Of a DNA stretch of 64,000 nt, positions 9,818 through 51,560 are shown one piece after another. The translations under genes and the position numbers were made by a program. Positions within the stretch are counted from its first letter, which is position 1. Every line of letters starts with the position of its first letter. Source of the DNA: Candidatus Omnitrophota bacterium (GTDB lineage Bacteria > Omnitrophota > Gorgyraeia > JAFGHF01); NCBI GenBank assembly GCA_016939375.1, contig JAFGHF010000034.1, forward strand, positions 13,950-77,949. The letters run 5' to 3'. Below the pieces are notes generated by a model. It saw only the letters and a program-made list of their open reading frames with translations, ran no database searches and was not told where the DNA came from.

Positions 9818-9857
9818 CTTTTCCTCCCCTAATTTATTAAGTTTTACGACTTAAACT

Positions 9858-11219: not shown

Positions 11220-11220
11220 C

Positions 11221-13878: not shown

Positions 13879-13881
13879 GGC

Positions 13882-14853: not shown

Positions 14854-16130
14854 GAGGGCTTAGCCTTTTTTTCTTGTGTTGAGTGATGTTTATAATGGTG
14901 TTTTTCGTGTGTCATTGTGATCTTGCGTATTCTACGTTTACGTACATCATCTACCGTAAAAAGATAGTTCCTATGCCTTATGCTTTCTCCTGATTTAGGG
15001 ATTCTGCCAAAAAGATGGCCAATCAGACCGGCTACTGTCTGTACATCTTCGACCTTGAAATGGGTATGCAATTCTTCATTTAAATCGTGCAGGGAAGTCT
15101 TGCCGCTTACCGAAACTGAGTTCTCATCGATTCTGACGATAAGCTTCTCTTCTGTATCGTATTCATCCTGGATTTCGCCTACGATTTCCTCCAGTATGTC
15201 CTCGATGGTAACCAAGCCTGAGGTACCGCCGTATTCGTCTGTTACTATAGCAATATACGATCTTTTGCTTTGAAACTCCAACAATACTTCTTCTATCTTC
15301 TTGGTATCGGGGACAAAAAGAATCGGCTTGACTAATTTTTGCCAATCCGGACAAGGAGCAAGCAGATATTCTTTAGCGTAGACAATCCCCAAGATATTGT
15401 CTATAGTCTCTTTATATACCGGCAGTTTAGAATGGCGGTTGGATTTAAGGATCCGCTCAAGCTGCTGGGCATCTTCATTGAAATCGACACCGATTATGTC
15501 TACGCGCGGAGTCATGACCTCATTAACAGACCTTTCTGCGAAGTCGAAAACATTAGAGATCATCTGCTCTTCTTCTTTGCTCACTACCCCCTCTTTCTCT
15601 CCGATGGAAAGCAATCCTCTGACCTCTTCTTCGGTCAGGAACGGTTCCTTTAAATATTGGCGGCCGATAATGCGCTGAGAGAAGAAATCGGCAATCTTCG
15701 CCCATAACCAACGCAGGGGAAATATTAATTTGGCAAAAAGTTGTAAATAGCGTGCGATAAAGCAAGAAAAGTCTTCTGCGTGGGTAATGGCAAAAGTCTT
15801 AGGAGTGACCTCTCCAAATATTAAAAGCAAGGCAGTAGTAAAACCGACTGCGATACCCAATGCCTTTTGGCCGCTAATACGTATGGCTGTTTCAGTTACC
15901 AAGGCACTAGCAGAGACATTGACCAACATATTCCCGGTAAGAATAGTATTGAGGGTTCTGCGGGGCGAGCTCAATAGATTTTCGATTACAGCGCACTGCC
16001 CCGGCTGGATTTTTTTGAGCCTACGCAACTGCATTTTTGACAAAGAAAAAAGAGCCGTCTCGCTGGCAGAAAAAATCCCTGAAAGGACAAGCAACATTAC
16101 AAAACCTATAATATGCCAGGTCAAAACCAA
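14850..16130 (-). CDS. HlyC/CorC family transporter (DUF21-CBS-CorC_HlyC)
   Basis: GIFSASETALFSLSKMQLRRL DUF21, CBS pair and C-terminal CorC_HlyC-like domain, ending in a His/Lys-rich tail (HEKHHYKHH). Confidence 0.8.
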   Translation of the reverse strand: MVLTWHIIGFVMLLVLSGIFSASETALFSLSKMQLRRLKKIQPGQCAVIENLLSSPRRTLNTILTGNMLVNVSASALVTETAIRISGQKALGIAVGFTTALLLIFGEVTPKTFAITHAEDFSCFIARYLQLFAKLIFPLRWLWAKIADFFSQRIIGRQYLKEPFLTEEEVRGLLSIGEKEGVVSKEEEQMISNVFDFAERSVNEVMTPRVDIIGVDFNEDAQQLERILKSNRHSKLPVYKETIDNILGIVYAKEYLLAPCPDWQKLVKPILFVPDTKKIEEVLLEFQSKRSYIAIVTDEYGGTSGLVTIEDILEEIVGEIQDEYDTEEKLIVRIDENSVSVSGKTSLHDLNEELHTHFKVEDVQTVAGLIGHLFGRIPKSGESIRHRNYLFTVDDVRKRRIRKITMTHEKHHYKHHSTQEKKAKPS

Positions 16131-17831: not shown

Positions 17832-17948
17832 TAGGTTAATATAGGTTAATAAATAATAGGAGAAATAAGGGTTAATAACGGTTAACAGAGGTTGCGAAAG
17901 GCAACCTATATTAACCGACACTGCTAATACATGGCATTGTTAACCTAC
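17832..17948. repeat. Copy A of the GGTTAAY-repeat/hairpin intergenic element family (3 copies in this window)
   Basis: Contains GGTTAAT/GGTTAAC heptamers (17834, 17844, 17870, 17880) and the hairpin AGGTTGC-gaaag-GCAACCT (17888-17907). Positions 17852-17881 are 30/30 identical to the reverse complement of 24647-24676, and the 3' arm is about 85% identical to RC(24575-24620). Confidence 0.7.
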
Positions 17949-24557: not shown

Positions 24558-24693
24558 TAGGTTAACAATGGTTAACATAGGTTAACAATACCATGCATTA
24601 GCAGCGTTGGTTAATATAGGTTGCTGTTTTTGTAACCTTTTTTAACCGTTATTAACCCTTATTTCTCCTATTATTTCTTAACTTATATTAACC
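24558..24693. repeat. Copy B (inverted orientation) of the GGTTAAY-repeat/hairpin element, inserted between mlaE and mlaF
   Basis: GGTTAAC at 24560, 24570, 24580 (exact 10-bp phasing) and GGTTAAT at 24609. Hairpin GGTTGC-tgttttt-GTAACC at 24619-24637 (G-U wobble relative to copy A). Its reverse complement aligns across about 100 bp with copy A. Confidence 0.7.
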
Positions 24694-31883: not shown

Positions 31884-31990
31884 TTGGTTAATATAGGTTA
31901 ACATTGGTTAACACAGGTTAACATAAGTTGCCTTACGTCCCTTGGCAACCTCTATTAATAACCAACGCGTTTAACAAAAAAATTGTTAAC
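31884..31990. repeat. Copy C of the GGTTAAY-repeat/hairpin element (between lolD stop and ilvE start)
   Basis: GGTTAAT at 31886 then GGTTAAC at 31896, 31906, 31916 (10-bp phasing). Hairpin GTTGCC-ttacgtcccttg-GGCAAC at 31928-31949, followed by CTCTATTAATAACCAACG, which is homologous to CTATATTAACCGACA in copy A. Confidence 0.65.
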
Positions 31991-33903: not shown

Positions 33904-34020
33904 AATATTTCCTTTTTTTGCTTTACGCTGCTGACGGCCGTATAGCTATCATTGGCACCAGTTTCCTTAAGGCCTACATATATTTCCGGAAACAGGTACT
34001 CAAGGCAATGGCTTTAGTTG
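33904..34020. repeat. Copy R1 of the palindrome-string junction element (between lysS stop and lolE start)
   Basis: Contains CTGACGGCCGTATAGCTAT plus CCTTAAGG, TTTCCGGAAA and GGTACTCAAGG. The perfect palindromes are ACGGCCGT, ATAGCTAT, CCTTAAGG and TTTCCGGAAA. About 80% identical to 37960-38062. Confidence 0.7.
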
Positions 34021-35468: not shown

Positions 35469-35498
35469 ATTATATCCTAAAGGGGCTTTGCTTGTCAA
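35469..35498 (-). promoter_or_regulatory. Putative sigma70 promoter for lysS
   Basis: Minus strand reads TTGACA (35498-35493), an 18-nt spacer, then TATAAT (35474-35469), about 45 nt upstream of the lysS ATG. Confidence 0.4.
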
Positions 35499-35530: not shown

Positions 35531-37315
35531 TTAGGGGTCTTGACTATTTCTGATTTGGTATTGGTAGAGTTTAAGCCTCTTGGAAAGGCTGGAAGTGTCA
35601 AAGCCTAATTCATTGGCCTTATTACAGTATTCTAACGCTAATGAATACTTATTGTTACGAAAGTAAGCCACTGCCAGGTTATAGTAAGCAGGGGCATAGC
35701 TAGGGTCTGCCGCAAGCGCCTTTTCATAGAAAGTTATGGCTTGCTCTATATCTTCGATATCTATATAAGCCAAAGCAAGATTATTATATATCTCTGCATG
35801 CGGATAACCCAGGGCAAGCGCTTTTTTGTATAATTCTATAGCGCTTGCGCTTTCCCCTTGCGCCTTGTAAATATTGGCCATGTTGTTGTAGGCCTGGGTA
35901 TAAGCCGGCTCTAACTCTATCGCCCGTTTGTAATAATCAACTGCTTTCTTTGGCTCACCCAGCGCCTGATATGCGACTCCAAGGTTATTATATAATTCCG
36001 CAAGATGCGGTTGTAATCTTAGAGCTTCTTTATATTGCTCGATTGCTTTTTCATGTTCTCCCCGACCAAAATATAAAAGTCCTAAGTTATTATGCGCTCC
36101 TGCACTATCAGGGACATATTTCAAGGTCCTTTTGTAGAAAGTCAGGGGATCCTGCCAATAACTATTCTGCGCAAAGGTAAGGCATGAATAAAAGCAGATT
36201 AATATAACCGCAAAGACACACCCTGCTCTTTTTTGTCTCTTGACCTCGACCGACCATGATAGAAACCGCGCCGCGATAAGGCACATACCCATTAATGGCA
36301 TATAAAGCCAGTGTTCGGCCATATAGGCATTGAGCGGATAGAGATTGGATTGCGCAAGAAGGGTTATAAGGAACCAGCCGATGGCAAAGAGAATTAAGTT
36401 GTCGTGCTTTTTCTTCCAAGCGACTAAAAATAAAAAAACTACTATGGCCATCCCCAACAAAGCCTGGGGATGAGAGAAAGAAAACAGCCTATTGCCATAT
36501 TCCGCATGTAGATTAACAGGCGCCAGCATAATTCTGAGGTAATTAGCCATGGCAACAAAAAATCCGGGGATCCTCTGTAACAGGGTGGTAGGATAAGCTA
36601 TATTGTAAAGAAGGGGCTTAAGTATAGTCATCCTTAGCGCGACATAGAAGCAAGCAATGACAACTATAGGCAGAAATTTTGGCAACTCACATCTCTTCTT
36701 AAAACTGTAATGGTAGAACAACAACAACAAAGGCAAAATAAGGCTGTTTTCCTTGGCCAAGAGAGCTAAAACATAGCTAAAAAGACAAAGCATATAAACA
36801 CTGATTTTTCCTGAGTGCATATTTTTAAGATAAAGAACAAAACAAAGCAACATAAAAAATGCGGCCAAGGGATCGGCCCTTCCGGAGATATAGGCGACTG
36901 CTTGCGTGTTAGGAGGAAAAACTACAAAAATAAGGGCGGTCAATAAAGCGAGCAATCTCTGTCCAAAAATAATAGCTACTAGCCAATAAAGCGAGATAGC
37001 TACCAAAATATGCAAGACGACGTTGCTCAGATGGTAGCCCATTGGATTTAGGCCCCCAAAGGAATAATCTATCATGTAAGTGAGCATCTGCAGCGGGCGG
37101 TAGGAATTCCACTTCTTGCCTGAGCCGGCCACAATGTCCTTGCTAAAGATACCCGATAGATTACGCCAGTCCTTTATGTAGACATTGTCCTTGACTAGAT
37201 GTAAATCATCGGCGATAAACTCTCCGTTTAAAGAACTGCTATACACAAGAAAGCCCAATATGGCTATCAAGGCTATATCTATGGATATAGTTAGTATTTT
37301 ACTTTTATTTTTCAT
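35531..37315 (-). CDS. Membrane protein with a PMT/TMTC-like multi-TM N-domain and C-terminal TPR repeats (putative glycosyltransferase-like)
   Basis: About 370 aa of polytopic membrane domain (DDLHLV...YRPL, as in PMT_2/DUF1420-type proteins), then at least 6 TPR repeats (NNLGLLYFGRGEHEKAIEQYKEALRLQP...). Confidence 0.55.
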   Translation of the reverse strand: MKNKSKILTISIDIALIAILGFLVYSSSLNGEFIADDLHLVKDNVYIKDWRNLSGIFSKDIVAGSGKKWNSYRPLQMLTYMIDYSFGGLNPMGYHLSNVVLHILVAISLYWLVAIIFGQRLLALLTALIFVVFPPNTQAVAYISGRADPLAAFFMLLCFVLYLKNMHSGKISVYMLCLFSYVLALLAKENSLILPLLLLFYHYSFKKRCELPKFLPIVVIACFYVALRMTILKPLLYNIAYPTTLLQRIPGFFVAMANYLRIMLAPVNLHAEYGNRLFSFSHPQALLGMAIVVFLFLVAWKKKHDNLILFAIGWFLITLLAQSNLYPLNAYMAEHWLYMPLMGMCLIAARFLSWSVEVKRQKRAGCVFAVILICFYSCLTFAQNSYWQDPLTFYKRTLKYVPDSAGAHNNLGLLYFGRGEHEKAIEQYKEALRLQPHLAELYNNLGVAYQALGEPKKAVDYYKRAIELEPAYTQAYNNMANIYKAQGESASAIELYKKALALGYPHAEIYNNLALAYIDIEDIEQAITFYEKALAADPSYAPAYYNLAVAYFRNNKYSLALEYCNKANELGFDTSSLSKRLKLYQYQIRNSQDP

Positions 37316-37946: not shown

Positions 37947-38062
37947 AAGGTCTATGCTGTCCTTTTTTGGTTGTTGGTGTTGACGGCCGTTTAGCTATTA
38001 TTGGTACTTAGTTTCCTTAAGGTCTACATATATTTCCGGAAACCGGTACTCAAGGCTGTGGT
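37947..38062. repeat. Copy R2 of the palindrome-string junction element (between lnt stop region and plsC start)
   Basis: Reads TTGGTTGTTGGTGTTGACGGCCGTTTAGCTATTATTGGTACTTAGTTTCCTTAAGGTCTACATATATTTCCGGAAACCGGTACTCAAGGCTGTGGTT. The palindromes are ACGGCCGT, TAGCTA, CCTTAAGG, TTTCCGGAAA and ACCGGT. GGTACT occurs twice as a direct repeat, and copy R3 corresponds to a deletion between the two. Confidence 0.7.
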
Positions 38063-39538
38063 TGTTGCCAGTAGGGTTATAGCAATGCAGAAGTAGACAA
38101 AGATGTCCCCATGTTTAGTGTAAAAACTGGGCATGGAGCCTATCTTTAAGTCTTCGCTGGCCCAGCCTTCGGTTACTATATCCCGGCCCAGATAATCATC
38201 GACTCTTTTTAAAATCCTGCCCCGGGGATCTATGAAACAAGAAACACCCGTATTTGCGCTGCGGACTACGCTGACCCTGTTTTCTACTGCGCGAAATATC
38301 GAAGACTGTAAATGCTGATAAGGCTCTGCGGAGGAGCCAAACCAGGCATCGTTAGTCATATTTACCGCTAAGTTCGCCCCGCGCGAAACAAAAATGCGTA
38401 CCAGATCTGAAAACACGTCTTCAAAACAAATAAGGGCATTACATCTTACGCCGGGGACAACGCCAAATATCGTATACTCATCTCCCCGGCTAAAATTCCC
38501 GATCAAACCGGCAAAAGAAAAACGAGAGAAAAACTCAGGCCAGGGTATAAACTCCCCGAATGGGACCAGGCGCAGCTTATCATAACGCTGGAGGATCTCT
38601 CCGGAAGATAATAACGTGGCGCTGTTATGGATCTTTGAGCCCTCTGCCTCATGGGGCGTACCAAGCAAAAGATAGGACGGAGCAATGCTCTTAGATAAAG
38701 AACTAATTTCTTCTAAGAGCTCGGGTTCGCTTTCCAGAAACCCCGGCACCGAAGTCTCCGGCCAGATGATAATGTCCGGCTTATTAAAAGCGGCCTCTTT
38801 TGTCAAACGGCGATACTTGGCCAAAATAGATTCCCGAAAACGCGGATCCCACTTTTGCACCTGCGGGATATTACCTTGTATAACCGCGACTTTGACGCTT
38901 TGACCTTCTATCGGATGAAACAGCTTAAAATATCCATAAGCCAATGAAAAAAGCACGGGCAAGAAAGCGCAGAGTACAAAGATTGATCTTGCAAACCTTT
39001 TTTCAGTTCTCTGTCCTTTGTTTTCCAAAACAAGGCTTACTGTCTGATAAATCCCGACATTGACTAAGACAATCAAAAATGATACGCCATATGCCCCGGT
39101 GATATCGCTGATCTGGATAATCGGTAAAACTAAATATTGGGAATAGGCTAAAAGCGCCCAATTAAATCCCAGAATTGGCAGATGGCCGCGCACAAATTCC
39201 AAAACGACCCAGGCCGCAGGAATAAAAACAAGATTAAGCAGTCTAAATCTTTTGAATGCAAAAATAAATATACCAAAGGCTGCAAAATAAAACGCCAAAT
39301 AACACATAAGTACCACAAAGCCCAAGGTACTTACATAATTTATCCAATATAATGTGAGAGAGAAAAAAACTAAGCCTACAAGATAAGAGAGCAAAAAAGC
39401 GGACCGGGGATTTTTCTGTCTTTTAAGCGCAAAGAGCCAAGGGACAAGGGCAAACCAGGCAAAGATTGCAATACCGGGTTTAGGAAAGGCCAGGGTCAGG
39501 AAAATAGCGGATAAGATTGGTAAAAACAATATCATCAT
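38024..39538 (-). CDS. lnt: Apolipoprotein N-acyltransferase
   Basis: Multi-TM N-domain plus CN-hydrolase domain (VIQGNIPQ, IIWPETSVP, ICFEDVF catalytic Cys). The last about 13 codons are encoded by repeat R2. Confidence 0.85.
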   Translation of the reverse strand: MMILFLPILSAIFLTLAFPKPGIAIFAWFALVPWLFALKRQKNPRSAFLLSYLVGLVFFSLTLYWINYVSTLGFVVLMCYLAFYFAAFGIFIFAFKRFRLLNLVFIPAAWVVLEFVRGHLPILGFNWALLAYSQYLVLPIIQISDITGAYGVSFLIVLVNVGIYQTVSLVLENKGQRTEKRFARSIFVLCAFLPVLFSLAYGYFKLFHPIEGQSVKVAVIQGNIPQVQKWDPRFRESILAKYRRLTKEAAFNKPDIIIWPETSVPGFLESEPELLEEISSLSKSIAPSYLLLGTPHEAEGSKIHNSATLLSSGEILQRYDKLRLVPFGEFIPWPEFFSRFSFAGLIGNFSRGDEYTIFGVVPGVRCNALICFEDVFSDLVRIFVSRGANLAVNMTNDAWFGSSAEPYQHLQSSIFRAVENRVSVVRSANTGVSCFIDPRGRILKRVDDYLGRDIVTEGWASEDLKIGSMPSFYTKHGDIFVYFCIAITLLATTTALSTGFRKYM

Positions 39539-42500
39539 TCAGCTTCTCTTCCGCAACATTTTTTATATTTCTTCCCGCTGCCACAAGGACAAGGCTCATT
39601 GCGACCAATCTTGCGGCCTTCTCTTTTGAAAGTTTGCGGGGACTTTTCCTCTTGCGGGCCAGGAGCTGTTTTGGCTGGCTTCTGCTTTGCCACACCACGC
39701 CCTTGCCCGGCAGGACGGGGCAGATCTTGAATCCTGGCGCTTTCAGGATGGACCAGCCGCTGGGGAGTTTGAGCAAAGACCGTGGAAGCCTTTTCTTCCT
39801 TAAGCGGCTGTGCCCTGAAGACAACTTCCAAAGTCTCATTTTTGATGCTCTCAGTCATCTGCCTAAACATATCGTAACCTTCGCGCTGGTATTCGACTAA
39901 AGGGACGTGGCCGGCATACCCGCGCAGACCGATCCCTTCGCGCAGATGATCCATGCTGTATAAATGGTCTTTCCACTTGGCGTCGATCACCTGCAGTAAT
40001 ACGATCTGGGCAAAGCGCTGTAGATGCTCAGAGCCTACTTGAGCCTCTTTCTGCTCATAGGCCTGCTGCATCTTTGCCCTAATCTCTTGACTAAGCTGCT
40101 CTAAAGAAGAAATCTCCTCTAATCCTTCGACATTTAATAGGAATTTTGATCTAAGATGGCTTTTTAACCCTCTAATATTCCACTCCTGCGAATCTACATT
40201 TTCGTTGGCATAAAGCCCGACGATAGAGTCCGCCGTTTCTTCAATCATCTCTAATATATGTTCCTTAAGACTATTGCTGTTTAAGACCAGCCGTCTTTCG
40301 TCATATATCGCCTCTCGTTGGGTGTTCATAACATTGTCGTATTCCAAAAGTTGTTTTCTGATATCAAAATTGTGCTGCTCCACCCTCTTCTGGGCGGTCT
40401 CAATGCTCCTGGTAATCAGTGGGTGCTCGATGGGAATAGATTCCTCCCACTTCATAAAATCCATGATCTTGGAGATCTTATCCGAAGCAAAGATGCGCAT
40501 CAAATCGTCTTCCAAAGACAAATAAAATTGGGAGCTTCCCGGCGCTCCATGCCGTCCGGAGCGCCCACGTAGCTGATTGTCTATGCGTCGGGATTCATGG
40601 CGCTCGGTGCCTAAAACCTGCAGACCCCCCAAAGATACGATCTGCTCTCTCTCTTTGACATAGACTTCCATTTTCTCAGAAAGGATACCGATTTTCTCAC
40701 GGCTTTCGCTGGACAACGAAGAGAAATCTTTTATCTTGGTCAGGTCTCTGGACATGATCTCTTCTCTGGAAAGCAGGTTTATCCTGCGCAGGTCCTGTTC
40801 AATCACCTGAAACTCCTCTTGAGACCTCTTTATGTCCTCTAAAATCCTGTATTTTTTTATTTCCCCTATTACAGAATAGATTATATTTTCAAATCGGTTT
40901 TGCAACGTATCTTTGAGCATGTCTATTTGCTTTTTTGCCTCTCCCAGTTTGCGAGAATATGCTATCGGCCTCCACTTGCCCAGGACATTTTTTTTGATCT
41001 CTTGTAAACTGATGCCCCGGGAATCAAAATGTTCTCTGCCTAACCTTTCTATCCTATCCACAAGTTCCCAGAATTCCTTGCTTTGTTTAGTCAGATTTAA
41101 GAAAAATTCTTCGTTTGATTTAAAATCCCCTTCGATCCTTCCTAACTGTTGCTCTATTGTTTTAAGCTTTTCGCTGAGTCTATTCATTTCATCGCTAGAG
41201 ATCGTTTCATTGCTTGTTTGCTCTTTTTGATCTTCTTGCTTCCCCCCGCTGAGGAGCTCGATTTCTTTTGCCAGCTGGTCTTCCCTTTCCGCTATCAGCT
41301 CAACGGCCTCTTTCAGTTGCGGCTGCACCGTTTGACAAAACTCTACGAACCCCTTGATATTCTGTTGCATGCCAGCATAAAGCGTCTGCAAATAATCCAC
41401 CTTGTTTTTGCATCTTCCTACGATCTTATCTACGCCTTTCAATCTCTCTTGGTCAATATCTACCACAGAAAATATCTCTGCCAGGTTTTTTTGTTCTGCT
41501 ATAAGAATTTCTTTCAATTTAACGATGCTTTCCAAAGATGCCGCGAAAAGGGCCGAATAGTCTGCGTCGAAATTAAGCAGAAAGCTGCTGACGCTTTCCG
41601 CTTGTTTATCTACAAAATTACGATAGACCTTATCGTGTAAACTCGTCACGGCCAATAATCTGTTTAGCAGGTCATCGAACCTGTCTTCCGGTTGTTTTAG
41701 GCTGCTGATAGTCTTAGAGACTATTTTAAGCGAAGCTTCACAAATGATGTTTGCCAGGACAGCGTCTTTAAGCCTGGGGGGGTCGCCTCCCAGTTTGATG
41801 TCTGTCCCCCTGCCGGCCATATTGGTGGCCACAGTCACCCTGCCCTCTCTTCCCGCCTCAGAGATTATCCTTGCTTCCCTTGCTTCATCCTCGGCATTCA
41901 AAATCTCATGCTCTATGTCTCTCTCCGAAAGCAGCCGGCTTAGTTTCTTATTTTTCTCTACAGAAGTAGTGCCTACCAATACAGGCAAACCCTTTTTATG
42001 GTATTCGGCTACTTTATTGCATATGGCATTGAATTTTTCTTTCTCGGTCTTATATATGACATCGGGCGAGTCGTCACGGATAGTGGGTTTATAGGTCGGT
42101 ATACAAACCACGTCTAAATTATAAATATGGTAAAATTCCTGGGCCTCGGTAGCGACAGTGCCGCTCATGCCGGAAAGTTTCTCATACATACGAAAGTAGT
42201 TCTGAAATGTAATCGTGGCCAGGGTCTGGTTTTCCCTCTCGATCTTTACCCCTTCTTTAGCCTCTATTGCCTGATGCAACCCATCGCTCCAACGCCTCCC
42301 CGGCATAAGCCTTCCGGTAAACTCATCAATAATGACTACCTGGCCATGCTCGACTATGTAATCCACATCTCGCTCAAAAAGATTGTGCGCGCGCAGTGAT
42401 TGTTGGGTCAAGTGCTTTAAGGGCATGGTCTCGATCGTGCTTAAGTTATCGACGCCCCAAATGTGGGCAGCCTTTTTCTCCCCTTCATCGGTAAGAAATA

Positions 42501-43449
42501 CTAAATGTTCTTTCTCTTTAACAATGAAATCTACTCCCACGGTCAAATCGATCTCTTTATATTTGGCCTCGATCTCCTCTTTGTCGGTGATCTTTTTACC
42601 TTTTAACCTGCGGGCCACCTTATCCGCCTGATAATATTTGTCTGTGGCCTCTTCGGCAGGTCCGGAGATTATCAAAGGCGTACGCGCCTCGTCTACCAGT
42701 ATGCTGTCTACTTCATCGACTATGGCAAAATGGAACTCTCTCTGCACCATATCGGCCTTTCTGAACTTCATGTTGTCGCGCAGATAGTCAAAACCAAATT
42801 CGTTATTGGTCCCGTAAGTAATATCGCTGGCATACGCGGCCTGCCTTTCTCTGTCTCTCATATCGTGCTGGATCACCCCCACAGAAAGGCCTAAGGCCTC
42901 ATAGACCGGCCCCATCCAGTCACGATCACGCTTGGCCAGGTAGTCATTGACCGTGACTATATGTACACCCCTACCGCTAAGGGCATTTAAATATGCCGGA
43001 AGCGTGGCTACGAGCGTCTTTCCTTCTCCATTGGCCATCTCGGCGATTATCCCATAATGAAGTGTAAGCCCACCGATAAGCTGGACATCGTGATGGCGCA
43101 GGCCTATCGTGCGCCGGGCCGCTTCGCGCACCAGGGCAAAAGCATCAGGCAGGATATCTTCCAGGGCCTTATTGCGGATATCCCTGATCTTTGCTTTGAC
43201 GTTCTGTTTTTCCTTGGGATCGGTCATCTCGCTAAGCTGCTCTTCTAAAGCCTCTAAGGGCTCGCTAAGGTCTTTGCTTTTCTCTTCGATGCGCTTTCTA
43301 AATTCTTCTGTTTTATCGCGCAATTGCTCATCAGACAAAGCAGACATCTCCCCCTCAAGCATGTTAATCCGGTCGAGGACCGGCTTAAAGCGCCTGATAA
43401 TGCGCTCGCTCTGCGAACCACTGATCTTATTAAGCAAAAACTTAAACAT
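39535..43449 (-). CDS. secA: Preprotein translocase ATPase SecA, with a 370-400 aa coiled-coil insertion in NBD2
   Basis: Has the canonical SecA N-terminus, DEAD motifs, the C-terminal zinc finger CPCGSGKKYKKCCG, and an AAAGGAG SD 7 nt before the ATG. Motif V MAGRGTDIKLGG and GGLQVLGTERHESRRIDNQLRGRSGRHG lie about 420 aa apart, versus about 50 aa in E.coli. Total length is 1304 aa versus about 900. Confidence 0.95.
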   Translation of the reverse strand: MFKFLLNKISGSQSERIIRRFKPVLDRINMLEGEMSALSDEQLRDKTEEFRKRIEEKSKDLSEPLEALEEQLSEMTDPKEKQNVKAKIRDIRNKALEDILPDAFALVREAARRTIGLRHHDVQLIGGLTLHYGIIAEMANGEGKTLVATLPAYLNALSGRGVHIVTVNDYLAKRDRDWMGPVYEALGLSVGVIQHDMRDRERQAAYASDITYGTNNEFGFDYLRDNMKFRKADMVQREFHFAIVDEVDSILVDEARTPLIISGPAEEATDKYYQADKVARRLKGKKITDKEEIEAKYKEIDLTVGVDFIVKEKEHLVFLTDEGEKKAAHIWGVDNLSTIETMPLKHLTQQSLRAHNLFERDVDYIVEHGQVVIIDEFTGRLMPGRRWSDGLHQAIEAKEGVKIERENQTLATITFQNYFRMYEKLSGMSGTVATEAQEFYHIYNLDVVCIPTYKPTIRDDSPDVIYKTEKEKFNAICNKVAEYHKKGLPVLVGTTSVEKNKKLSRLLSERDIEHEILNAEDEAREARIISEAGREGRVTVATNMAGRGTDIKLGGDPPRLKDAVLANIICEASLKIVSKTISSLKQPEDRFDDLLNRLLAVTSLHDKVYRNFVDKQAESVSSFLLNFDADYSALFAASLESIVKLKEILIAEQKNLAEIFSVVDIDQERLKGVDKIVGRCKNKVDYLQTLYAGMQQNIKGFVEFCQTVQPQLKEAVELIAEREDQLAKEIELLSGGKQEDQKEQTSNETISSDEMNRLSEKLKTIEQQLGRIEGDFKSNEEFFLNLTKQSKEFWELVDRIERLGREHFDSRGISLQEIKKNVLGKWRPIAYSRKLGEAKKQIDMLKDTLQNRFENIIYSVIGEIKKYRILEDIKRSQEEFQVIEQDLRRINLLSREEIMSRDLTKIKDFSSLSSESREKIGILSEKMEVYVKEREQIVSLGGLQVLGTERHESRRIDNQLRGRSGRHGAPGSSQFYLSLEDDLMRIFASDKISKIMDFMKWEESIPIEHPLITRSIETAQKRVEQHNFDIRKQLLEYDNVMNTQREAIYDERRLVLNSNSLKEHILEMIEETADSIVGLYANENVDSQEWNIRGLKSHLRSKFLLNVEGLEEISSLEQLSQEIRAKMQQAYEQKEAQVGSEHLQRFAQIVLLQVIDAKWKDHLYSMDHLREGIGLRGYAGHVPLVEYQREGYDMFRQMTESIKNETLEVVFRAQPLKEEKASTVFAQTPQRLVHPESARIQDLPRPAGQGRGVAKQKPAKTAPGPQEEKSPQTFKREGRKIGRNEPCPCGSGKKYKKCCGREAE

Positions 43450-43589: not shown

Positions 43590-44996
43590 CTATTCTTTTT
43601 CTGCCTCAGCCGGTTCTTGGGCTACTGGTTCCTGGGCCGGTTCCTTTCCTAAATCAAGCTCATCGAGCTTATCGAAAAGACTGTTAAAGACATCCTCGCT
43701 TATCTCAAAAAGCACTGGTTTTCCTTGCACTTGGCCAATATAGCTTTTCTCCTCTGCCTCTTGCTTAATATCGGCAAGCAACACCGAGACTTGGTCATCT
43801 TGTTTGATCTCTAGAGAATAGCTTGGTTCCTTTAGGCTAGTACCATACTCTTCTGTCAAAAGCATCCGCATCGGCCGAAACTGTTCTATTTTGTCTATGT
43901 AAGCTGTGTTTTTCTCTATCAGGGCCTTGTCCAGAACAGTCTCTTCTCCCTGCTTGTCGACAATTAATGACTGCAGTTTATCTTTATCTATCCTTAAGGG
44001 GTTGCCGATGAAAAATCTGCTTATATCAACATCGATTTTGTCCACATTATATCTGCGCAGCTCAAAGACATGGCCTTGAGAGTTTTCAAAATACCTGTCT
44101 TCGCTATCTTCCCTAATCTGCTTGCCTAGTTTCAATTCTATGATCTTTTCATCAGCACCAAGAGAGATGACCAGATAAGGCTGATCAAAGCCGTAGTCCT
44201 GAGCTTGGGGTTCCAATACCTTTGCGGCCCGGATATCATTTATACCCTTTAGAAAATCCTTTATCTTTTTGGCATCTAAATCAAATATCGGCTCTTCTGG
44301 CTGCGCTGCCCAATATTTCAAGTCTTTTCCCTGATCAAGTTCCTTTTTTACATCGGCAACGATGATCTCTCCTTCATCCTGGCGGCGCTTTATCTTGAGC
44401 GAATTTATTGATTCCACATCAATATTAGTTACGCTTAAATCCATCCATTGCTCGGCATTGAATTTTGCCTCTTGCGGGTCGCCATATATGCCCATCCAAG
44501 CAAGCACGTCTTTGTTCACCAGATATACGTTAGATGAATCGCCTTTCCTTAAAAACGAGGCGCCGAAACCGGGCCTTTTGCTGCCGATATAAAAAATCTT
44601 CTGGGGCTTGCCTTCCTTATCAAACATGCTTATAGAAAAAGCCTTTTCTTCGGAAATGCCAAAGTCAGATAATAATTCCGCAGAGCTTGAACGCAATTCA
44701 CCCTGCAGCTGCGAAATATCATTTATCAATTTTTCTATTTGGTCGTTTTTGGCCCTTATATCCCACTTCTCAGGGATTCGCCAAAACCCATCTTCTCCTT
44801 TTTCAAACCTTAAAATATCATCATCTCTGGATTTCTTTAATTCCAGAGTATAGATATCTTCCGGCTGCAATGAGATCTTAAGGCTTTCATATTCGACTGT
44901 CTCTATTTCCGGCTTAAATAATGTCTGTTTGATAAATAGCACCCCTAAAAGGACCAGCAATATTATGCCCAAAAATATAATATGTTTGATCTTCAT
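43590..44996 (-). CDS. DUF4340-like membrane-anchored protein (accessory protein of gliding-type ABC transporters)
   Basis: N-terminal TM (IIFLGIILLVLLGVLFI) with the remainder periplasmic, and an acidic PEPA tail. Sits directly downstream of a GldF/GldG-type permease, as DUF4340 proteins usually do. Confidence 0.5.
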   Translation of the reverse strand: MKIKHIIFLGIILLVLLGVLFIKQTLFKPEIETVEYESLKISLQPEDIYTLELKKSRDDDILRFEKGEDGFWRIPEKWDIRAKNDQIEKLINDISQLQGELRSSSAELLSDFGISEEKAFSISMFDKEGKPQKIFYIGSKRPGFGASFLRKGDSSNVYLVNKDVLAWMGIYGDPQEAKFNAEQWMDLSVTNIDVESINSLKIKRRQDEGEIIVADVKKELDQGKDLKYWAAQPEEPIFDLDAKKIKDFLKGINDIRAAKVLEPQAQDYGFDQPYLVISLGADEKIIELKLGKQIREDSEDRYFENSQGHVFELRRYNVDKIDVDISRFFIGNPLRIDKDKLQSLIVDKQGEETVLDKALIEKNTAYIDKIEQFRPMRMLLTEEYGTSLKEPSYSLEIKQDDQVSVLLADIKQEAEEKSYIGQVQGKPVLFEISEDVFNSLFDKLDELDLGKEPAQEPVAQEPAEAEKE

Positions 44997-45000
44997 CGCC

Positions 45001-47466
45001 TTATACCGTCTTTAAATATACCCATTTGGAGCGTTTTCTAATAAAGATCCTCAAGCTGCCGATAGCCGAAAGTACGACAGGGACCAAAAATGTCGTAGCC
45101 AATCTCCAACCTGCCTTTGCCGCGGCAGAGACTTTTTTTAAACTACGGTCTATGGGCTGCTTACTTCTGACATGGACTAAATCCTCTCCTAACGTAAGTG
45201 CATCGATCGAATTTAAGAAGAAAAGGACTTGCCCTCCTTTATCAAAAAGATCCCGATTAAAAGTCTGCGCGCAGCCGATAAGGATCAATTTTCCGGATTG
45301 AGGCTCTAGTTCAATTTCTTCTTCGGGTTGCTCATAGCTTTCTTCGCCCTCCTCTTCCTCCGGAGGCCACTGCGGTACTTCTTTTCCTTTAAAGGCATCG
45401 GGAAATTGCCCCTGCAGCATCACCGCCAAGGGAAAGACATCGCGCTTTTGGGCTGCAGGCATATCGAGGTCAGCTTTATTAAGATTGCCGCTGTGAAATT
45501 TTACCTTCCAAGCATCGGCGCTTGATGTAAGCAAAGTCTTGGCGTCTAGATTCAACTCTTTGAGCTTTTTTTCCTCAAGATTAAGGGCGGTGCCCCAAAG
45601 ATAAAACACAATCGGCAGCCTGGAAGTTATCGAGATATCTTTGTTCATCTGTTCTGAACCGATTATTATCTGGATGGGCAGCTTGACCGGAGAACTAACA
45701 GAAAATATACCTAATAGCTTCTCACCGGTCAGCGAGACTACGTCACACTGGCTGTCCATCAGAAAGTCTTCGTCTACCGTCACACCCCAGTTCTGCAGCA
45801 ATTGATTTATCTGCGGCCTTTTGTCTATTGCACTCACCTGCAATCCCTTGGGGCCTAAGGTCCTATACTGAAAGTCATAGTTCTGCACCGCCAGAAATAC
45901 AGAACCACCGTTGACCAAAAAGTTGTTTATTTCAAATCTCTGTCGTTCATTGAGCTTCTCCGGCTCCAAAACGACCAAAGTATCCACGTCTTCAGGTATA
46001 GACTCATCTTCCGTAAGCTTGATTCTTGAGACCCGATAACCCTCATACTCAAGCAGCTTAGGCACTAGTTCATATTCATCATCTATATATTTTTCGGCGA
46101 TACCCTGGCCCAACTGCTGCAGTATTTGTTTCATCTGCGGGTCGACCACCCTTTCTACATATGGAGCAACCAAAGCTACATGCGGCATACGCTCAAGAGT
46201 CATCTTATATATTTTGGAAATGACGATGTATTCTAAATCGGGCAAATTTTGATTGATTATCTGGGGAATAATCTCCTCTGGCTTCTCTTTATAGGCCAGG
46301 GAAAGGGAAGAATATATCAATTTTACGCCAACCTCATCGGCTTCAACGCTCCTTACCTGGAAAGGCCTTATCCCCTTCTCTCCTATCGACTTCTCCAGGG
46401 TGTCTTCATCTTCTTTTTCTACATTTGCCGCTTCCATATGAAAAACCTTATAATTGAATTTGCCCTTTGCTGCCACCTGAAATTCATCAAGCTTATCTCG
46501 GATATCGCGTTCGATAGTCTTCATCCCTGTAGGCATTTTATCGGCCGGAGAGATGAATAGCTTAGCGGTGACCGGTGCCTTTAACTTTTGTAAGATCTTG
46601 ATGCTGGCCGGGGAAACTGTATATATCTTGTCCTGGGTAAAATCATAGCGGCCGATAGGTATGTCGGAAAAGACAAAATTGGCCAGGATAAAAATGCCCA
46701 GGCTGATCAGGCAGGTAGCGGTAAATATAGTCCTTGCCTTGGGCCTTAGTCTGGTCTCAAGCCAAAAACCATTGAGCAGCAAAAAGATGACTGTGCCGAT
46801 GAGGAAGTAAAGCACATCCCGGCTGTCCATCACCCCTTTTTGAAAAGCGGCAAAATGATGAGCCAGGCCCAAAGAGCTTTTCAAAAAAGAGCCTAATCCA
46901 GGCATCCAGCCGTCTATCGAGCCGGCGGTAAAATCGGTACCTAAAAGGAAAAAGACAAAGCAGGCCATCATCGCTAAAATCAAAGAGACGATCTGGTCTT
47001 TGCAAAAGCCGGAGACCAAAATGCCCAAGGCCAAGAAGAAACTCCCTAAAAAAACAGCTCCGATATATTGGCAGATTATCGCTCCCACATCCGGTTGTCC
47101 TAAAAATATAAGCATTAGGGGTACGGGGATGGTAGAGATAAGGGCAGCGACATAAAATATCAAGCTGGCAAAAAACTTACCCAAGACGAGCTCATGCGTC
47201 TTTACCGGAAAGGTCAGTAAAAGCTCCAGGGTATTTCCTTTTCTGTCTTCCGCCCAAAGCCTCATCGTCACCGCAGGCAGGAAAACGCATAGGATCACCG
47301 GCAGGGAATAGAAAAATCTTCTCATGTCAGCGATTGAGATCAAGAAAAAGTCAGTCATAAACAGGCCTACTGATATGAGCAGAAACACTATGATGAAAAT
47401 ATAGGCGATTGCTGAATTGAAATATGCCCTGAGCTCTCTTTTCAAAATAGTAAGGATGTTTCTCAT
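45001..47466 (-). CDS. Fused ABC-2 permease (GldF-like) and ABC-transporter auxiliary component (GldG-like)
   Basis: N-terminal about 240 aa is a 6-TM ABC-2 permease. The remaining about 580 aa is a large periplasmic domain with a C-terminal TM, the ABC_transp_aux/GldG architecture; 821 aa. Confidence 0.6.
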   Translation of the reverse strand: MRNILTILKRELRAYFNSAIAYIFIIVFLLISVGLFMTDFFLISIADMRRFFYSLPVILCVFLPAVTMRLWAEDRKGNTLELLLTFPVKTHELVLGKFFASLIFYVAALISTIPVPLMLIFLGQPDVGAIICQYIGAVFLGSFFLALGILVSGFCKDQIVSLILAMMACFVFFLLGTDFTAGSIDGWMPGLGSFLKSSLGLAHHFAAFQKGVMDSRDVLYFLIGTVIFLLLNGFWLETRLRPKARTIFTATCLISLGIFILANFVFSDIPIGRYDFTQDKIYTVSPASIKILQKLKAPVTAKLFISPADKMPTGMKTIERDIRDKLDEFQVAAKGKFNYKVFHMEAANVEKEDEDTLEKSIGEKGIRPFQVRSVEADEVGVKLIYSSLSLAYKEKPEEIIPQIINQNLPDLEYIVISKIYKMTLERMPHVALVAPYVERVVDPQMKQILQQLGQGIAEKYIDDEYELVPKLLEYEGYRVSRIKLTEDESIPEDVDTLVVLEPEKLNERQRFEINNFLVNGGSVFLAVQNYDFQYRTLGPKGLQVSAIDKRPQINQLLQNWGVTVDEDFLMDSQCDVVSLTGEKLLGIFSVSSPVKLPIQIIIGSEQMNKDISITSRLPIVFYLWGTALNLEEKKLKELNLDAKTLLTSSADAWKVKFHSGNLNKADLDMPAAQKRDVFPLAVMLQGQFPDAFKGKEVPQWPPEEEEGEESYEQPEEEIELEPQSGKLILIGCAQTFNRDLFDKGGQVLFFLNSIDALTLGEDLVHVRSKQPIDRSLKKVSAAAKAGWRLATTFLVPVVLSAIGSLRIFIRKRSKWVYLKTV

Positions 47467-47471
47467 TGTAC

Positions 47472-48422
47472 TTATCTTCTATCTTTCTTTTGATCTCTGC
47501 TTAAGAGCCAGATAAAAGCCTCTTCTAAGCTGGCTTGTTCTCTTTTAAGCTCTCTGATGCTCCAACCTTTTTTGTCAATTACCTCATTTAATCTTGAGAC
47601 CAATGGTTTTCCCGTATCAGCGCTGACAAAAAACTTAATATAATTCCCTTCCGAGCCGACAAAGCGCAGCTCATCGACCACCTCTTCGTTCTCTAATGTA
47701 GAGCGCACATCGTTTTCGTCTGCTTTTACCACTAGCGTTAGCTTCTCACCCTTGGTCGCCATCTGCGTGATCTCATGGCGAGTACCTTCAGCGATCATGC
47801 GCCCATTGTTCAATATAACTATCCTATCGGCTAAGGCCTCTACCTCCTGTAATATATGCGTGGAAAATATCACGGTCTTATCTTGAGCCAGCCTATGCAT
47901 AAGCTCCCTAATACCGATTATCTGTAAAGGGTCTAAACCGGTCATCGGCTCATCAAGGATCAATACTTGTGGGTCATGGATAAGGGCTTGAGCAAGACCT
48001 GCTCTTTGTCTAAAGCCCTTTGATATTTCCGAAATAGTATGTTTCCAAATAGGACCTAGGCCGCAATTTTCTTTTACCCAGCGCAGCCTTTGCCTTAGCT
48101 GCTCTCCGCCAAGCCCCCTGGCGCTGCCGATAAATATAAGGTATTCATCGACAAGCATATCATCATATAAAGGGACGGTTTCGGGCATATAGCCGATAAG
48201 CCTCCTTGCGGCAAGGGGTTCCTCTGTGACATCGTGTCCATCGATGGTGGCTGTGCCTTTGCTGGGATAGAGATAACTTGTCAATATGCGCATCAACGTG
48301 GTTTTTCCAGCTCCATTAGGGCCTAAAAGCCCGAGGATCTTGCCTTTTTCGGCCACAAAAGAGACCTCATCCAGGGCTTTTGTATTGCCGTAGTTCATGC
48401 CCACAGACTTGACTTCTATCAA
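47472..48422 (-). CDS. ABC transporter ATP-binding protein (GldA/CcmA-like)
   Basis: Walker A GPNGAGKTT, signature ISKGFRQRAGLAQAL, Walker B LILDEPMTGLD; 316 aa. Confidence 0.85.
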   Translation of the reverse strand: MIEVKSVGMNYGNTKALDEVSFVAEKGKILGLLGPNGAGKTTLMRILTSYLYPSKGTATIDGHDVTEEPLAARRLIGYMPETVPLYDDMLVDEYLIFIGSARGLGGEQLRQRLRWVKENCGLGPIWKHTISEISKGFRQRAGLAQALIHDPQVLILDEPMTGLDPLQIIGIRELMHRLAQDKTVIFSTHILQEVEALADRIVILNNGRMIAEGTRHEITQMATKGEKLTLVVKADENDVRSTLENEEVVDELRFVGSEGNYIKFFVSADTGKPLVSRLNEVIDKKGWSIRELKREQASLEEAFIWLLSRDQKKDRR

Positions 48423-48579: not shown

Positions 48580-49681
48580 TTACCTCTCTTTTACCTTCCA
48601 TTTAAGATAGGCTTGGATAAAACCGTCTATATCCCCGTCCAACACCGCAGTCACGTTGCCTTTCTCGAAATTAGTACGGTGGTCTTTGGTCATTGTGTAA
48701 GGGCAGAGTACATAAGAACGGATCTGGCTGCCCCAAGCAATATCCTGCTTTTGGGCGTAGCCGGCTTCCAACTTCTTGCGCTGTTCTTCCTTTTCTTTTT
48801 CGTGCAGACGGGCACGCAATATCTTCATTGCCGAGGCCTTATTCTTATGTTGCGAGCGTTCGTTTTGACATTGTACTATAATGCCACTGGGGATGTGGGT
48901 TATCCTTACTGCCGAATCAGTTACGTTGACGTGTTGGCCTCCGGCCCCGGAAGAACGATAGGTATCTATCTTCAGGTCTTCGGGCCTTATCTCCACTTTG
49001 ATATCCTCGGTAATCTCAGCTATGACATCAACGGAGGCAAAAGATGTATGCCGTCGCTTGTTTGCGTCAAAGGGAGATATACGTACAAGCCTGTGCACAC
49101 CGATTTCTGACTTCAGGTATCCGTATGCATATTCTCCTCTTATTATAAAGGTGATGTTTTTTGTCCCTGCTTCTTCACCGGGTAGAAAATCCAGGGTCTG
49201 CGTCGAAAAACCCCTGCGCTCTGCCCAACGCAGATACATCCGAGTAAGCATAGAGACCCAATCACAGGCCTCTGTGCCTCCGGCTCCGGAGTGAATGCTG
49301 ATAATGGCGTTGTTGGGGTCTTCTTCTTCGCTAAGCAAGGTGGCCAGTTCAAGGGAATCAAGCTGCCTTTTAAGGCGGGCTAAATCGTTTTGCAGATGTT
49401 CTATGGATTTACTATCGTGCTCATCTACTATTTCTATCAACTCTTTTAATTCACTATATTTTTCCTGGGCTCCCAACCAAGGCTGGGAAGCCGACTTTGC
49501 AGATTTTAATTGCTGGATCAATGTCTGCGCTTTTTTATTATCCTTCCAAAAGTCCGGACGCGACATCTCTGTTTCAATCTCGCTGATGCGTTTGCGCTTG
49601 CCTTCTATGTCAAAGATAACCTCGTAGTTGCACCAACCTCTTCTCCATACCCTCTATCTGCGCCTTCAACTCCTCCAACAT
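48580..49681 (-). CDS. prfB: Peptide chain release factor 2, translated via a programmed +1 ribosomal frameshift (join 49681..49613 with 49611..48580; nt 49612 skipped)
   Basis: Downstream frame has SPF and GGQ motifs (RISPFDANKRRHTSF; SGAGGQHVN). Upstream, an AAGGAG SD and ATG at 49681 encode MLEELKAQIEGMEKRLVQLRGYL in frame 0, ending in CGAGGTTATCTTTGAC. This is the canonical internal-SD plus CUU UGA C shift site. The +1 frame continues DIEGKRKRISEIETEMSRPDFW... Confidence 0.9.
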
Positions 49682-49717: not shown

Positions 49718-49785
49718 GTTAATTTTGAATTTTGCGTTTTGGTTTTGAATTTTTGGTTTTGAATTTTTCATTTCGTTGTATTATA
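49718..49785. repeat. Short tandem repeat upstream of the prfB start codon
   Basis: ttttgaattttgcg ttttggttttgaatttt tggttttgaatttttcattt, i.e. about 3 copies of a 15-16 nt AT-rich unit (TGGTTTTGAATTTTT). Confidence 0.5.
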
Positions 49786-50066: not shown

Positions 50067-50133
50067 ATATTTCCTTCTTTTGGTTGTTGGTGTTGACGGC
50101 CGTATAGCTATTACAGGTACTCAAGGCTGTGGT
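50067..50133. repeat. Copy R3 (short form) of the palindrome-string junction element (between uvrC stop and ogt start)
   Basis: TTGGTTGTTGGTGTTGACGGCCGTATAGCTATTACAGGTACTCAAGGCTGTGGTT, with a 23/23 match to R2 at its 5' arm. The uvrC stop TGA is the TCA of GGTACTCA (50121-50123). Confidence 0.7.
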
Positions 50134-51560
50134 TTTCTAAGATGCTTAATAATATTTCCCGCAGTCTTTTTATCGATTCCTTCTACTGCGAGCAGATCCT
50201 CCAAGCTTGCTTGCCGCAATGCCAGAATAGATTTAAAATGTTTAAGCAAAATGCGTTTTCTTTTGGGGCCCACCCCGGGAATATTGTCTAATTCTGAGAT
50301 GCGCATGCTTTTTCCTCTTAAAGCCCTGTGGTATGAAATAGCGAAGCGGTGAGCTTCATCGCGTATCTTCTGCAAAAGATGCAAGGCCTTAGATTCATGC
50401 GGCAGACGTACTGCTTTGCCGCCGGGAGAAAAAATCGTCTCTAAGCGCTTGGCCAAGGAGACCACCGGGATCGCTGTCAAGCCCAGCTTATCCAGCTCTC
50501 TGCGGGCAGAAGACCATTGTCCTTTGCCTCCGTCCACCAAAACCAAGTCCGGAAGCGGCAAGACCGTTGCCTGCGGCTCTCTACGATACCTTCTATGTAC
50601 CACTTCTCTAATCATGGCGTAATCATCCACGCCTTTTACCGTCTTTATTCTGAACCTGCGGTAGGTATTTTTATCCGCTAGCCCCTCTACGAAACTGACC
50701 ATGGAGCCGCACAGACCCACTCCTGAAATCTCTGATATATCAAAGGCCTCTATGCGATAAGGCATCTTCTTAAGCTGCAAGGCCTCTTTTAGCTGAAAGA
50801 TATCATCTTTACGGTCGATCTCTTTAGTCTGAAAGACTATTTCATTTAAAGAGTTGATTCTGTCCCTTAACGAAGCCGCTTCTTCGAATTGCTCGTCCCT
50901 TGAAGCCTGATGCATCCTCTGCTTGAGCTCTCTGAAGAGCTCATTATATCTGCCTTGAAGAAAAAGCCCTAATTGTTTTATCGTCCTGCGATACTCAGTG
51001 ACATCGACATCACGCACGCACATGCCTGGGCAAAGCCTTAGCTGCAGGTAAAGACAAGGCTTCTGGGGAAGGTTTTTACAGCTTCTAAAGGGGAATATCT
51101 CCCTGATGCTCCTCAAGGCTTCTTTCAGCTGTCGAGCACTTATATAAGGGCCGTAGTACTTAGCGGTTTTTTCTTTCTTTCCTCTGCCAATTAAAATATA
51201 GGGATATTGCTGATTTTCAACGACCTTTATATAAGGATAGCTTTTATCATCTTTTAAAGCAGCGTTATAATATGGTTTATATTTTTTAATCAACGAGTTT
51301 TCCAAAAGCAACGCCTGGGCCGGCGATGAGGTCTGGATATATTCGATATCGCGGAGGCGAGAAAGCAACGCCTGGACCTTATCCGTAGGTGGCTTCTGAT
51401 AATATGAACCTACCCGCTTACGCAAAGAAGAGGCCTTGCCCACGTAAAGGATGACTCCCCTCTGGTCTTTCATTAAATACACTCCGGGAGCATCGGGAAA
51501 GGCTTTTACCCTGTTAGAAAGTCTCTTTCTAGCAGGGCTTACTTTCTTTTTAATATCCAT
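50121..51560 (-). CDS. uvrC: Excinuclease ABC subunit C (compact form)
   Basis: GIY-YIG N-domain (GVYLMKDQRGVILYVGKA), UvrBC motif (EEAASLRDRINSL), RNaseH-like endonuclease region (IEAFDISE) and C-terminal HhH; 479 aa. Confidence 0.8.
   Translation of the reverse strand: MDIKKKVSPARKRLSNRVKAFPDAPGVYLMKDQRGVILYVGKASSLRKRVGSYYQKPPTDKVQALLSRLRDIEYIQTSSPAQALLLENSLIKKYKPYYNAALKDDKSYPYIKVVENQQYPYILIGRGKKEKTAKYYGPYISARQLKEALRSIREIFPFRSCKNLPQKPCLYLQLRLCPGMCVRDVDVTEYRRTIKQLGLFLQGRYNELFRELKQRMHQASRDEQFEEAASLRDRINSLNEIVFQTKEIDRKDDIFQLKEALQLKKMPYRIEAFDISEISGVGLCGSMVSFVEGLADKNTYRRFRIKTVKGVDDYAMIREVVHRRYRREPQATVLPLPDLVLVDGGKGQWSSARRELDKLGLTAIPVVSLAKRLETIFSPGGKAVRLPHESKALHLLQKIRDEAHRFAISYHRALRGKSMRISELDNIPGVGPKRKRILLKHFKSILALRQASLEDLLAVEGIDKKTAGNIIKHLRKPQP

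Follow-up and report, generated by a model that had tools for sequence, protein, structure and literature searches.

A small repeat family at three operon junctions of an uncultivated Omnitrophota bacterium, with features of a mobile mini-element

Introduction

REP/BIME and ERIC sequences are intergenic repeats that are transcribed in operons, often lie just 3' of a stop codon and consist of imperfect palindromes forming stable hairpins. Rickettsia palindromic elements (RPEs) are small mobile repeats which enter coding sequence, where the protein is changed and not destroyed, and cassette genes are flanked by attC sites, imperfect palindromes of considerable length that contain RYYYAAC/GTTRRRY core sites. 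For MIRUs, mobility, insertion at start codons and a coupled internal ORF have been described (PMC12548453), and the IS-derived MITEs of bacteria have been reviewed (PMC2229807). A literature search for repeats of Omnitrophota returned nothing relevant.

Here, we analysed a 64-kb stretch of DNA (the window) of an uncultivated bacterium, which Lnt homologues assign to Candidatus Omnitrophota. It holds three copies (R1, R2 and R3) of a short repeat at the junctions lysS|lolE, lnt|plsC and uvrC|ogt. A preliminary description had presented the repeat as a string of perfect palindromes and had considered a multi-site protein-binding platform, a target of nucleases or methyltransferases and a junction-targeting mobile mini-element. 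Its observations were partly confirmed by our analysis and, among its interpretations, support was obtained for the mobile mini-element and not for the platform or the enzyme target. We give a somewhat better than even chance to the reading that the family represents a lineage-restricted, non-autonomous mobile (or formerly mobile) mini-element, present as short non-coding insertions.

Results

All three copies were recovered where they had been placed before. The 18-nt core TGACGGCCGTWTAGCTAT occurs three times in the window compared to 0.11 occurrences expected from shuffles, the 31-nt long-form segment occurs twice with none expected, and a repeat finder clustered the sites of R1, R2 and R3; an nhmmer profile built from the three copies yielded no fourth copy in the window. 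Pairwise identities amount to 88-97%, and the flanking genes are unrelated to each other. NCBIfam models confirmed these neighbours as lolCE, lysS, a plsC-like acyltransferase gene, lnt, ogt and uvrC. Each copy lies in sense orientation within an operon, with all neighbouring genes on the minus strand; three copies share their orientation by chance with a probability of 0.25. The placement between the stop codon of one gene and the start codon of the next, previously described as invariable, is largely forced, given that non-coding DNA makes up only ~4% of the window and that almost all genes point in one direction.

On the sense strand, R1 and R2 are ~88% identical from (T/C)(T/A)GCCTTGAGTACC to ACGGCCGTCA(G/A)CA(G/C) and divergent beyond; the element termini read (C/T)(A/T)GCCTTGAGTACC... 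and ...ACGGCCGTCARCAS. The element proper comprises 82-83 nt in the long forms (R1, R2) and 40 nt in the short form (R3). As proposed earlier, R3 equals a long form minus the segment between two GGTAC(T) repeats: it lacks 42-43 nt between the imperfect direct repeats GAGTACC(T/G)GT and (A/G)(A/G)GT(A/G)CCAAT (sense strand), and the TGT after GAGTACC is retained as in R1. This fits an origin of R3 as a deletion derivative of a long form; a possible alternative is that the long form arose by nested insertion into a short ancestor. In both long forms the extra segment can fold into a hairpin of ~11 bp with a 21-nt loop, directly after the stop codon. Reading the sequences of R1 to R3 revealed no ORF common to the copies and no conserved mini-ORF, and Tandem Repeats Finder detected no tandem arrays at the three sites. 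Terminal inverted repeats are at chance level, the first 14 nt matching the reverse complement of the last 14 nt at 5 (R1), 8 (R2) and 7 (R3) positions; random window segments reach a match of at least 8/14 in 11% of trials (P ~0.11).

Table 1 Features of the three copies, of the affected genes and of the corresponding junctions in relatives (positions are those of the window)
Feature	Position	Strand	Remarks
R1 element proper, long form, 83 nt	33926..34008	-	R1/R2 similarity ends and direct repeats begin at its borders; sense-strand ends TTGCCTTGAGTACC...ACGGCCGTCAGCAGCG
R2 element proper, long form, 82 nt	37977..38058	-	
R3 element proper, short form, 40 nt	50090..50129	-	
R1 5' direct repeat TAAAGCCA	34009..34016	-	lysS codons (L)KP, conserved in relatives
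R1 3' direct repeat TAAAGCAA	33918..33925	-	7/8 match
AAAAAGGAAATATTATGA, after R1 3' repeat		-	reads as old lysS tail KKEIL-TGA overlapping lolE ATG
R1 long-form-specific segment	33954..33994	-	
R1 long-form inverted repeat ACCAGTTTCC/GGAAACAGGT	within 33954..33994	-	10 nt, 90% complementary, 21-nt spacer
R2 5' direct repeat CAACAACCA	38059..38067	-	inside lnt codons A-T-T
R2 3' direct repeat CAACAACCA	37968..37976	-	9/9 match; simulated P ~1.5e-4
R2 long-form-specific segment	38003..38044	-	Logan contig L052 ends at the 3' border, 38003
R3 5' repeat AAAACCA	50130..50136	-	in uvrC codons K-P
R3 3' repeat ACAACCA	50081..50087	-	6/7 match; 2-nt offset from R2-defined border
lysS stop TGA	34000..34002	-	element-supplied
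uvrC stop TGA	50121..50123	-	element-supplied
lnt stop TAG	38024..38026	-	inside R2 element; tail ALSTGFRKYM element-encoded
lysS reconstructed tail QLKPKKEIL-stop	4 nt into lolE (ATGA)		relative has QLKPEKKD-stop
uvrC reconstructed tail ...RKPKEGNIC-stop	8 nt into ogt		
lnt reconstructed 26-residue tail after FVYFCI, AITLLATTKKGQHRPYALILVNQDSI-stop	32 nt into plsC		
lnt/plsC in relatives	4-nt overlap (ATGA or TTGA)		L053, L056, L058
uvrC/ogt in relatives	35-nt overlap (L053); 1-nt overlap (L057)		

Each copy is flanked by a short direct repeat, with simulated P values of 1.5e-4 for R2 (9/9 positions), 0.009 for R1 (7/8) and 0.026 for R3 (6/7). These values were obtained by simulation on random window positions with a slack of +/-3 nt and are somewhat optimistic, as the borders were partly picked with the repeats in view, and the repeat of R2 is CA-rich and of low complexity, which raises its chance expectation. 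The repeats flanking R1 are unlike those of R2. For R1, the 5' repeat is host sequence and the 3' copy its duplicate because the L-K-P codons of lysS are kept in relatives, whose LysS tails read QLKPEKKD-stop and QLKLEK-stop. The 3' flank of R3 is identical to that of R2 over 12 nt (CAACAACCAAAA), and the two copies also have the 5' flank AACCACAG in common. The identical 3' flank, combined with repeats of R3 itself that match at only 6/7 positions and with a 2-nt offset, is less easily explained by clean transposition than by an R2-type locus copied along with its flank, or by a terminal repeat owned by the element. R3 may have met a highly specific target, may be a copied R2-type locus, or part of its 'repeat' may belong to the element. 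The three targets are alike in that AMARCCA is followed by an A-run and AAGG; a search for unoccupied AMARCCAAAA sites gave 10 versus 1.75 expected, a count that includes those beside R2 and R3 and is uninformative on saturation.

The element changes the C-termini of the upstream genes. lysS and uvrC now end xP-TGA on element codons, and lnt enters the element in another frame and reads ten element codons (ALSTGFRKYM) up to a TAG. The earlier assignment of the upstream UGA to a TCA on the plus strand (TGA on the minus strand) within GGTACTCA is correct for lysS and uvrC; lnt stops at the deeper TAG and not at this TGA. UGA acts as an ordinary stop here because the window encodes prfB with its CTT TGA C frameshift site; on the same ground, the idea of selenocysteine or another recoding of UGA was rejected. 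The classical +1 programmed frameshift site of prfB is located at 49605-49621 (-) with the start of ORF0 at 49681, and owing to the frameshift the first part of the gene is missing from the mechanical ORF list, which starts it at the second (48580-49566). An AAGGA Shine-Dalgarno motif had been reported 6-8 nt before the downstream ATG, which agrees with the 6 nt in R1; the distance is 5 nt in R3 and 13 nt in R2. The accompanying notion that the element supplies this motif is probably to be reversed because AAGGA lies outside the 3' direct repeat; the motif is probably host-derived and sits in a stretch resembling the former 3' end of the gene upstream. When the element and one repeat are removed, the upstream ORFs of lysS, uvrC and lnt run on into the following gene by 4, 8 and 32 nt, respectively, and one added A in the A6 run of lnt gives ...ATTKKRTA-stop, a tail of the same length as those of the relatives. 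Since any frame eventually ends, this reconstruction illustrates consistency and is not a test.

Four syntenic relatives, whose Lnt proteins are 60-64% identical to that of the window, keep the gene order murJ-uvrC-ogt-prfB-secA-lnt-plsC-lysS-...-lolE and lack the element; nhmmer detected no trace of it in their loci. Because the genes of the relatives overlap without the element, we regard their junctions as empty sites and the window copies as insertions. Pairs that overlap in the relatives are now 54-96 nt apart in the window. With junctions empty in four relatives and copies that each carry their own flanking repeat, the comparison of orthologous junctions supports the junction-targeting mobile mini-element of the preliminary description, and the simplest polarity would be insertion in the lineage of the window.

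The three junctions bearing the element are insertion hot spots in the relatives, too. Between lnt and plsC, L057 harbours an island of ~5.5 kb that includes an integrase gene and toxin-antitoxin genes (8954-15809); L058 has a DUF2442/DUF4160 pair between uvrC and ogt (4931-5444) and L053 a bAvd-like gene between lysS and lolE (9567-9920). The latter gene raised the idea of a DGR template/variable-repeat pair, which was rejected as differences between the copies are not adenine-specific. Downstream of lysS, a perfect 14-bp inverted repeat, ATTGCTAAATTGTT...AACAATTTAGCAAT, is found in L057 (17940-17992) and four tandem heptamers RTATAGC in L053 (9543-9575), both unrelated to the element. Compared to the four relatives, SecA of the window (39535-43449, -) has 1304 aa versus 955-978 aa, reflecting a large insertion or extension. 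Relative to them, the window also has additional genes for an ABC transporter ATPase and for ABC_transp_aux/DUF7088 and DUF4340 proteins between prfB and secA (43590-48422, -), and a gene for a 594-aa TPR protein between plsC and lysS (35531-37315, -). UvrC (50121-51560, -; 479 aa) aligns to its model in two separate parts and lacks the central portion, and such a short UvrC is typical of the lineage (465-484 aa in relatives).

According to the preliminary description, the element is essentially a string of distinct palindromes. The count of 8-bp palindromes does exceed that of dinucleotide shuffles of the element (P 0.001-0.009; four within 117 nt in R1, P ~0.001), but two unrelated regions of the window (~1876-2054 and 43861-44086) likewise peak at four per 117 nt, and 19 regions contain at least three. 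As two unrelated regions equal the element and the feature was picked post hoc, the density is within chance for 64 kb. The string is not conserved either: ATAGCTAT is broken in R2 (TTAGCTAT), ACCGGT is found only in R2, the short form is devoid of three of the five palindromes, and substitutions between copies fail to preserve symmetry. Palindromic words tied to the element include ACGGCCGT, CCTTAAGG and TTCCGGAA. Across the window, CGGCCG, CTTAAG, TCCGGA, AGGCCT, ACCGGT, GGCC, AGCT, TTAA and CCGG occur at observed/expected ratios of 1.0-1.5, and word counts in the window gave neither restriction-site avoidance nor another restriction signature. The short palindromes of the element appear incidental.

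Predicted RNA folds of the element were no better than those of shuffles on both strands (z -0.67 to +1.12), so that folding gave no support to a structured RNA. Rfam returned no match at gathering score in the window and, in sensitive mode, only matches with E 0.67-7.4, far below the gathering score; searches for tRNA and tmRNA genes were likewise negative. A promoter and terminator scan found no terminator and promoter matches only at background level (9/12 in R2). Upstream of lysS, a perfect sigma-70 promoter, TTGACA-18-TATAAT, is located at 35469-35498 (-), which places R1 within a transcription unit of lysS, lolE and lolD. Searches of the ~40 proteins of the window gave neither a transposase nor a recombinase.

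Repeats of other kinds are present as well. The leader upstream of prfB (49721-49768) contains a tandem array of 7/14-nt units, sense AAAATTCAAAACCA. A different repeat family consists of GGTTAAYA words phased every 10 bp in three intergenic leaders (17834-17887, 24560-24616 and 31886-31923), with inverted copies near 17909, 17938, 24650 and 24686; GTTAAC occurs at 1.9x its expected frequency, almost exclusively at these sites. By their arrangement, the clusters look like operator or iteron-type arrays of binding sites.

Outside the window, a 16-nt core pattern gave 51 single matches among the GTDB species representatives, all in unrelated phyla and none extending past the searched word. Core and long-form patterns had no matches in JGI metagenomes and IMG/VR, blastn gave no match in plasmids, and in phages it gave three marginal matches (22-31 nt) with E-values at the cut-off, 0.1. 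A search with the element-encoded C-terminal tails in a collection of 5.8 billion proteins returned three word-sharing candidates, none of them scoring. The exact PlsC, LysS, UvrC and LolE of the window are not on record. Lnt alone could be retrieved, from an independently assembled Logan contig of 1583 nt (SRR13394437) that is 100% identical over its whole length; the next best Lnt proteins are 62-64% identical. This contig (L052) carries the 5' part of R2 and stops exactly at the border between long-form segment and core. An assembly break at this point is what a repeat causes in de Bruijn assembly, though as evidence it is weak.

Discussion

How would a compact operon survive an insertion at such a place? 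We suggest that the mini-element hits the last few codons of the upstream gene in an overlapping or tightly abutting pair, and that a short host sequence of 5-9 nt resembling AMARCCA would thereby be duplicated on either side of the insert. The upstream gene now ends on the codons and the stop of the insert, either as xP-TGA (lysS, uvrC) or, in the other frame, as ALSTGFRKYM-TAG (lnt). The displaced, A-rich old 3' end with its Shine-Dalgarno motif would stay behind as leader of the next gene, which would have to initiate from this retained motif, and translational coupling of the pair would presumably be lost. Mobilisation would probably occur in trans, and the resemblance of the three targets suggests a target preference. 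The insertion reading is weakened by the small number of three copies, by ends devoid of terminal inverted repeats and by a window with no transposase among ~40 proteins, and also by R3, whose 3' flank equals that of R2 over 12 nt and whose own repeats match at only 6/7 positions with a 2-nt offset.

Alternatively, ectopic recombination or gene conversion among gene ends rich in A and CA might have spread the sequence, without transposition: a native junction of stop, spacer and leader would have been copied elsewhere via microhomology of the AACCA...AAAAGG type. The common flanks of R2 and R3 (5', AACCACAG; 3', CAACAACCAAAA) and the similarity of the three targets (AMARCCA, then an A-run and AAGG) speak for such copying, as do ends and window free of inverted repeats and transposase genes. 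However, the flanks of R1 differ from those of R2 and R3 and yet repeat each other (TAAAGCCA/TAAAGCAA), a pattern that conversion would not yield, and no donor junction is known; we consider this route unlikely, albeit one to be taken seriously. Loss of an ancestral spacer in the relatives, in place of insertion in the lineage of the window, is barely credible. Nothing speaks for it directly, apart from the fact that the polarity relies on four relatives at ~60% protein identity; the three loci are 88-97% identical within one genome while their flanking genes are unrelated, and the four relatives have overlapping genes at these junctions.

Functional readings were weighed as well. A selected intercistronic cis-element of the operon mRNA would combine the long-form hairpin after the stop, as a stability or processing signal, with the G-poor tract CAACACCAACAACCAAAA and AAGGA, which would give ribosomes an unstructured entry site of their own and uncouple the two genes. 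The sense orientation of all copies inside operons, the location of R1 downstream of a perfect TTGACA-18-TATAAT promoter, the ~11 bp hairpin possible directly after the stop in both long forms and the G-poor leader are in line with this idea. It nevertheless seems quite unlikely to us: fold energies equal those of shuffles (z -0.67 to +1.12), R3 is without the hairpin, covariation is absent, no relative has the element at the same junction, Rfam gives no match, and an identical orientation of three copies has a chance of 0.25. Very improbable is a DNA platform composed of several palindromic sites for dimeric proteins or restriction-modification enzymes. Its best argument is R1 with four 8-bp palindromes in 117 nt (P ~0.001 versus shuffles of the element), but two other window regions are equally dense, R2 has lost ATAGCTAT and is the sole copy with ACCGGT, symmetry is not kept between copies, the short form has lost three of five palindromes, and palindromic words occur at observed/expected ratios of 1.0-1.5. 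The last value, together with the absence of avoidance, also speaks against a target of nucleases or methyltransferases.

A bolder version of the mobile mini-element may be entertained, although we regard it as something of a long shot: a site-specific mini-element without terminal inverted repeats would home to A-rich AMARCCA-AAAAGG sequences at 3' ends in overlapping gene pairs, bring its own stop so that the hit gene survives, and convert coupled pairs into independently initiated ones. If true, Omnitrophota would possess mobile DNA of a new class that targets operon junctions and is moved by a recombinase. If the plain insertion reading is true, a family of small dispersed repeats is described here for the first time from Omnitrophota, whose members are known almost exclusively through metagenomes, and it would show that compact overlapping operons tolerate insertions when the insert brings a stop and leaves the next ribosome-binding site intact. 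On the practical side, such repeats break short-read assemblies, as illustrated by the Logan contig ending inside the element, and the altered C-termini predicted for the essential LysS, Lnt and UvrC matter for annotation. With three copies, the finding is modest and mostly descriptive.

Comparison with known elements

The element was compared with each of the systems introduced above. In REP/BIME and ERIC sequences, as in the element of the window, an intergenic position, transcription within operons and a location 3' of a stop are combined; in contrast to them, the window element folds no better than shuffles and offers a modest hairpin only in its long form. A REP/BIME-type palindrome was not found in the copies, the only inverted repeat being the 10-nt arm pair in R1, and no RAYT-type gene is present in the window. 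With RPEs, the element shares the entry into coding sequence and the alteration of a protein without its destruction, but RPEs are inserted in frame and translated as an internal peptide, whereas the window element ends the ORF and replaces its last residues. attC sites are likewise 55-140 nt long, a size range given for both, and located directly after the stop of one gene and before the next gene; the window element differs in having no element-spanning inverted repeats, housekeeping genes of conserved synteny as neighbours and no integrase.

Bacterial MITEs, such as Correia/NEMIS elements and the IS-derived types (reviewed in PMC2229807), are small, non-coding and dispersed, have short direct duplications of host DNA at their flanks and can alter the ends of neighbouring ORFs, all of which is seen here as well. 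Target-site duplications, as expected of a MITE, are present at R2 (9/9), R1 (7/8) and R3 (6/7), though the flank of R3 equals that of R2. MITEs are, however, defined by terminal inverted repeats matching those of a parent IS, whereas the ends of the window element match at chance level, no parent IS is known and its 40-83 nt are at or below the usual MITE size range. MIRUs share with the element the presumed mobility and the occurrence as short repeats within operons, between co-directional genes, in the sense of the genes, right where one gene stops and the next starts. They carry a small ORF coupled by a -4 overlap and often form tandem arrays, neither of which applies to the element: R1 and R3 have a TTG overlapping the TGA, from which different ORFs arise that terminate elsewhere than at the downstream ATG, the ATG of the second R1 mini-ORF is missing in R2, and there is no sequence similarity between MIRUs and the element. 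We thus regard MIRUs as the nearest analogue by placement and bacterial MITEs as similar in flanking duplications and size, and file the repeats as a new family within a broad known kind, the small dispersed repeats of bacteria.
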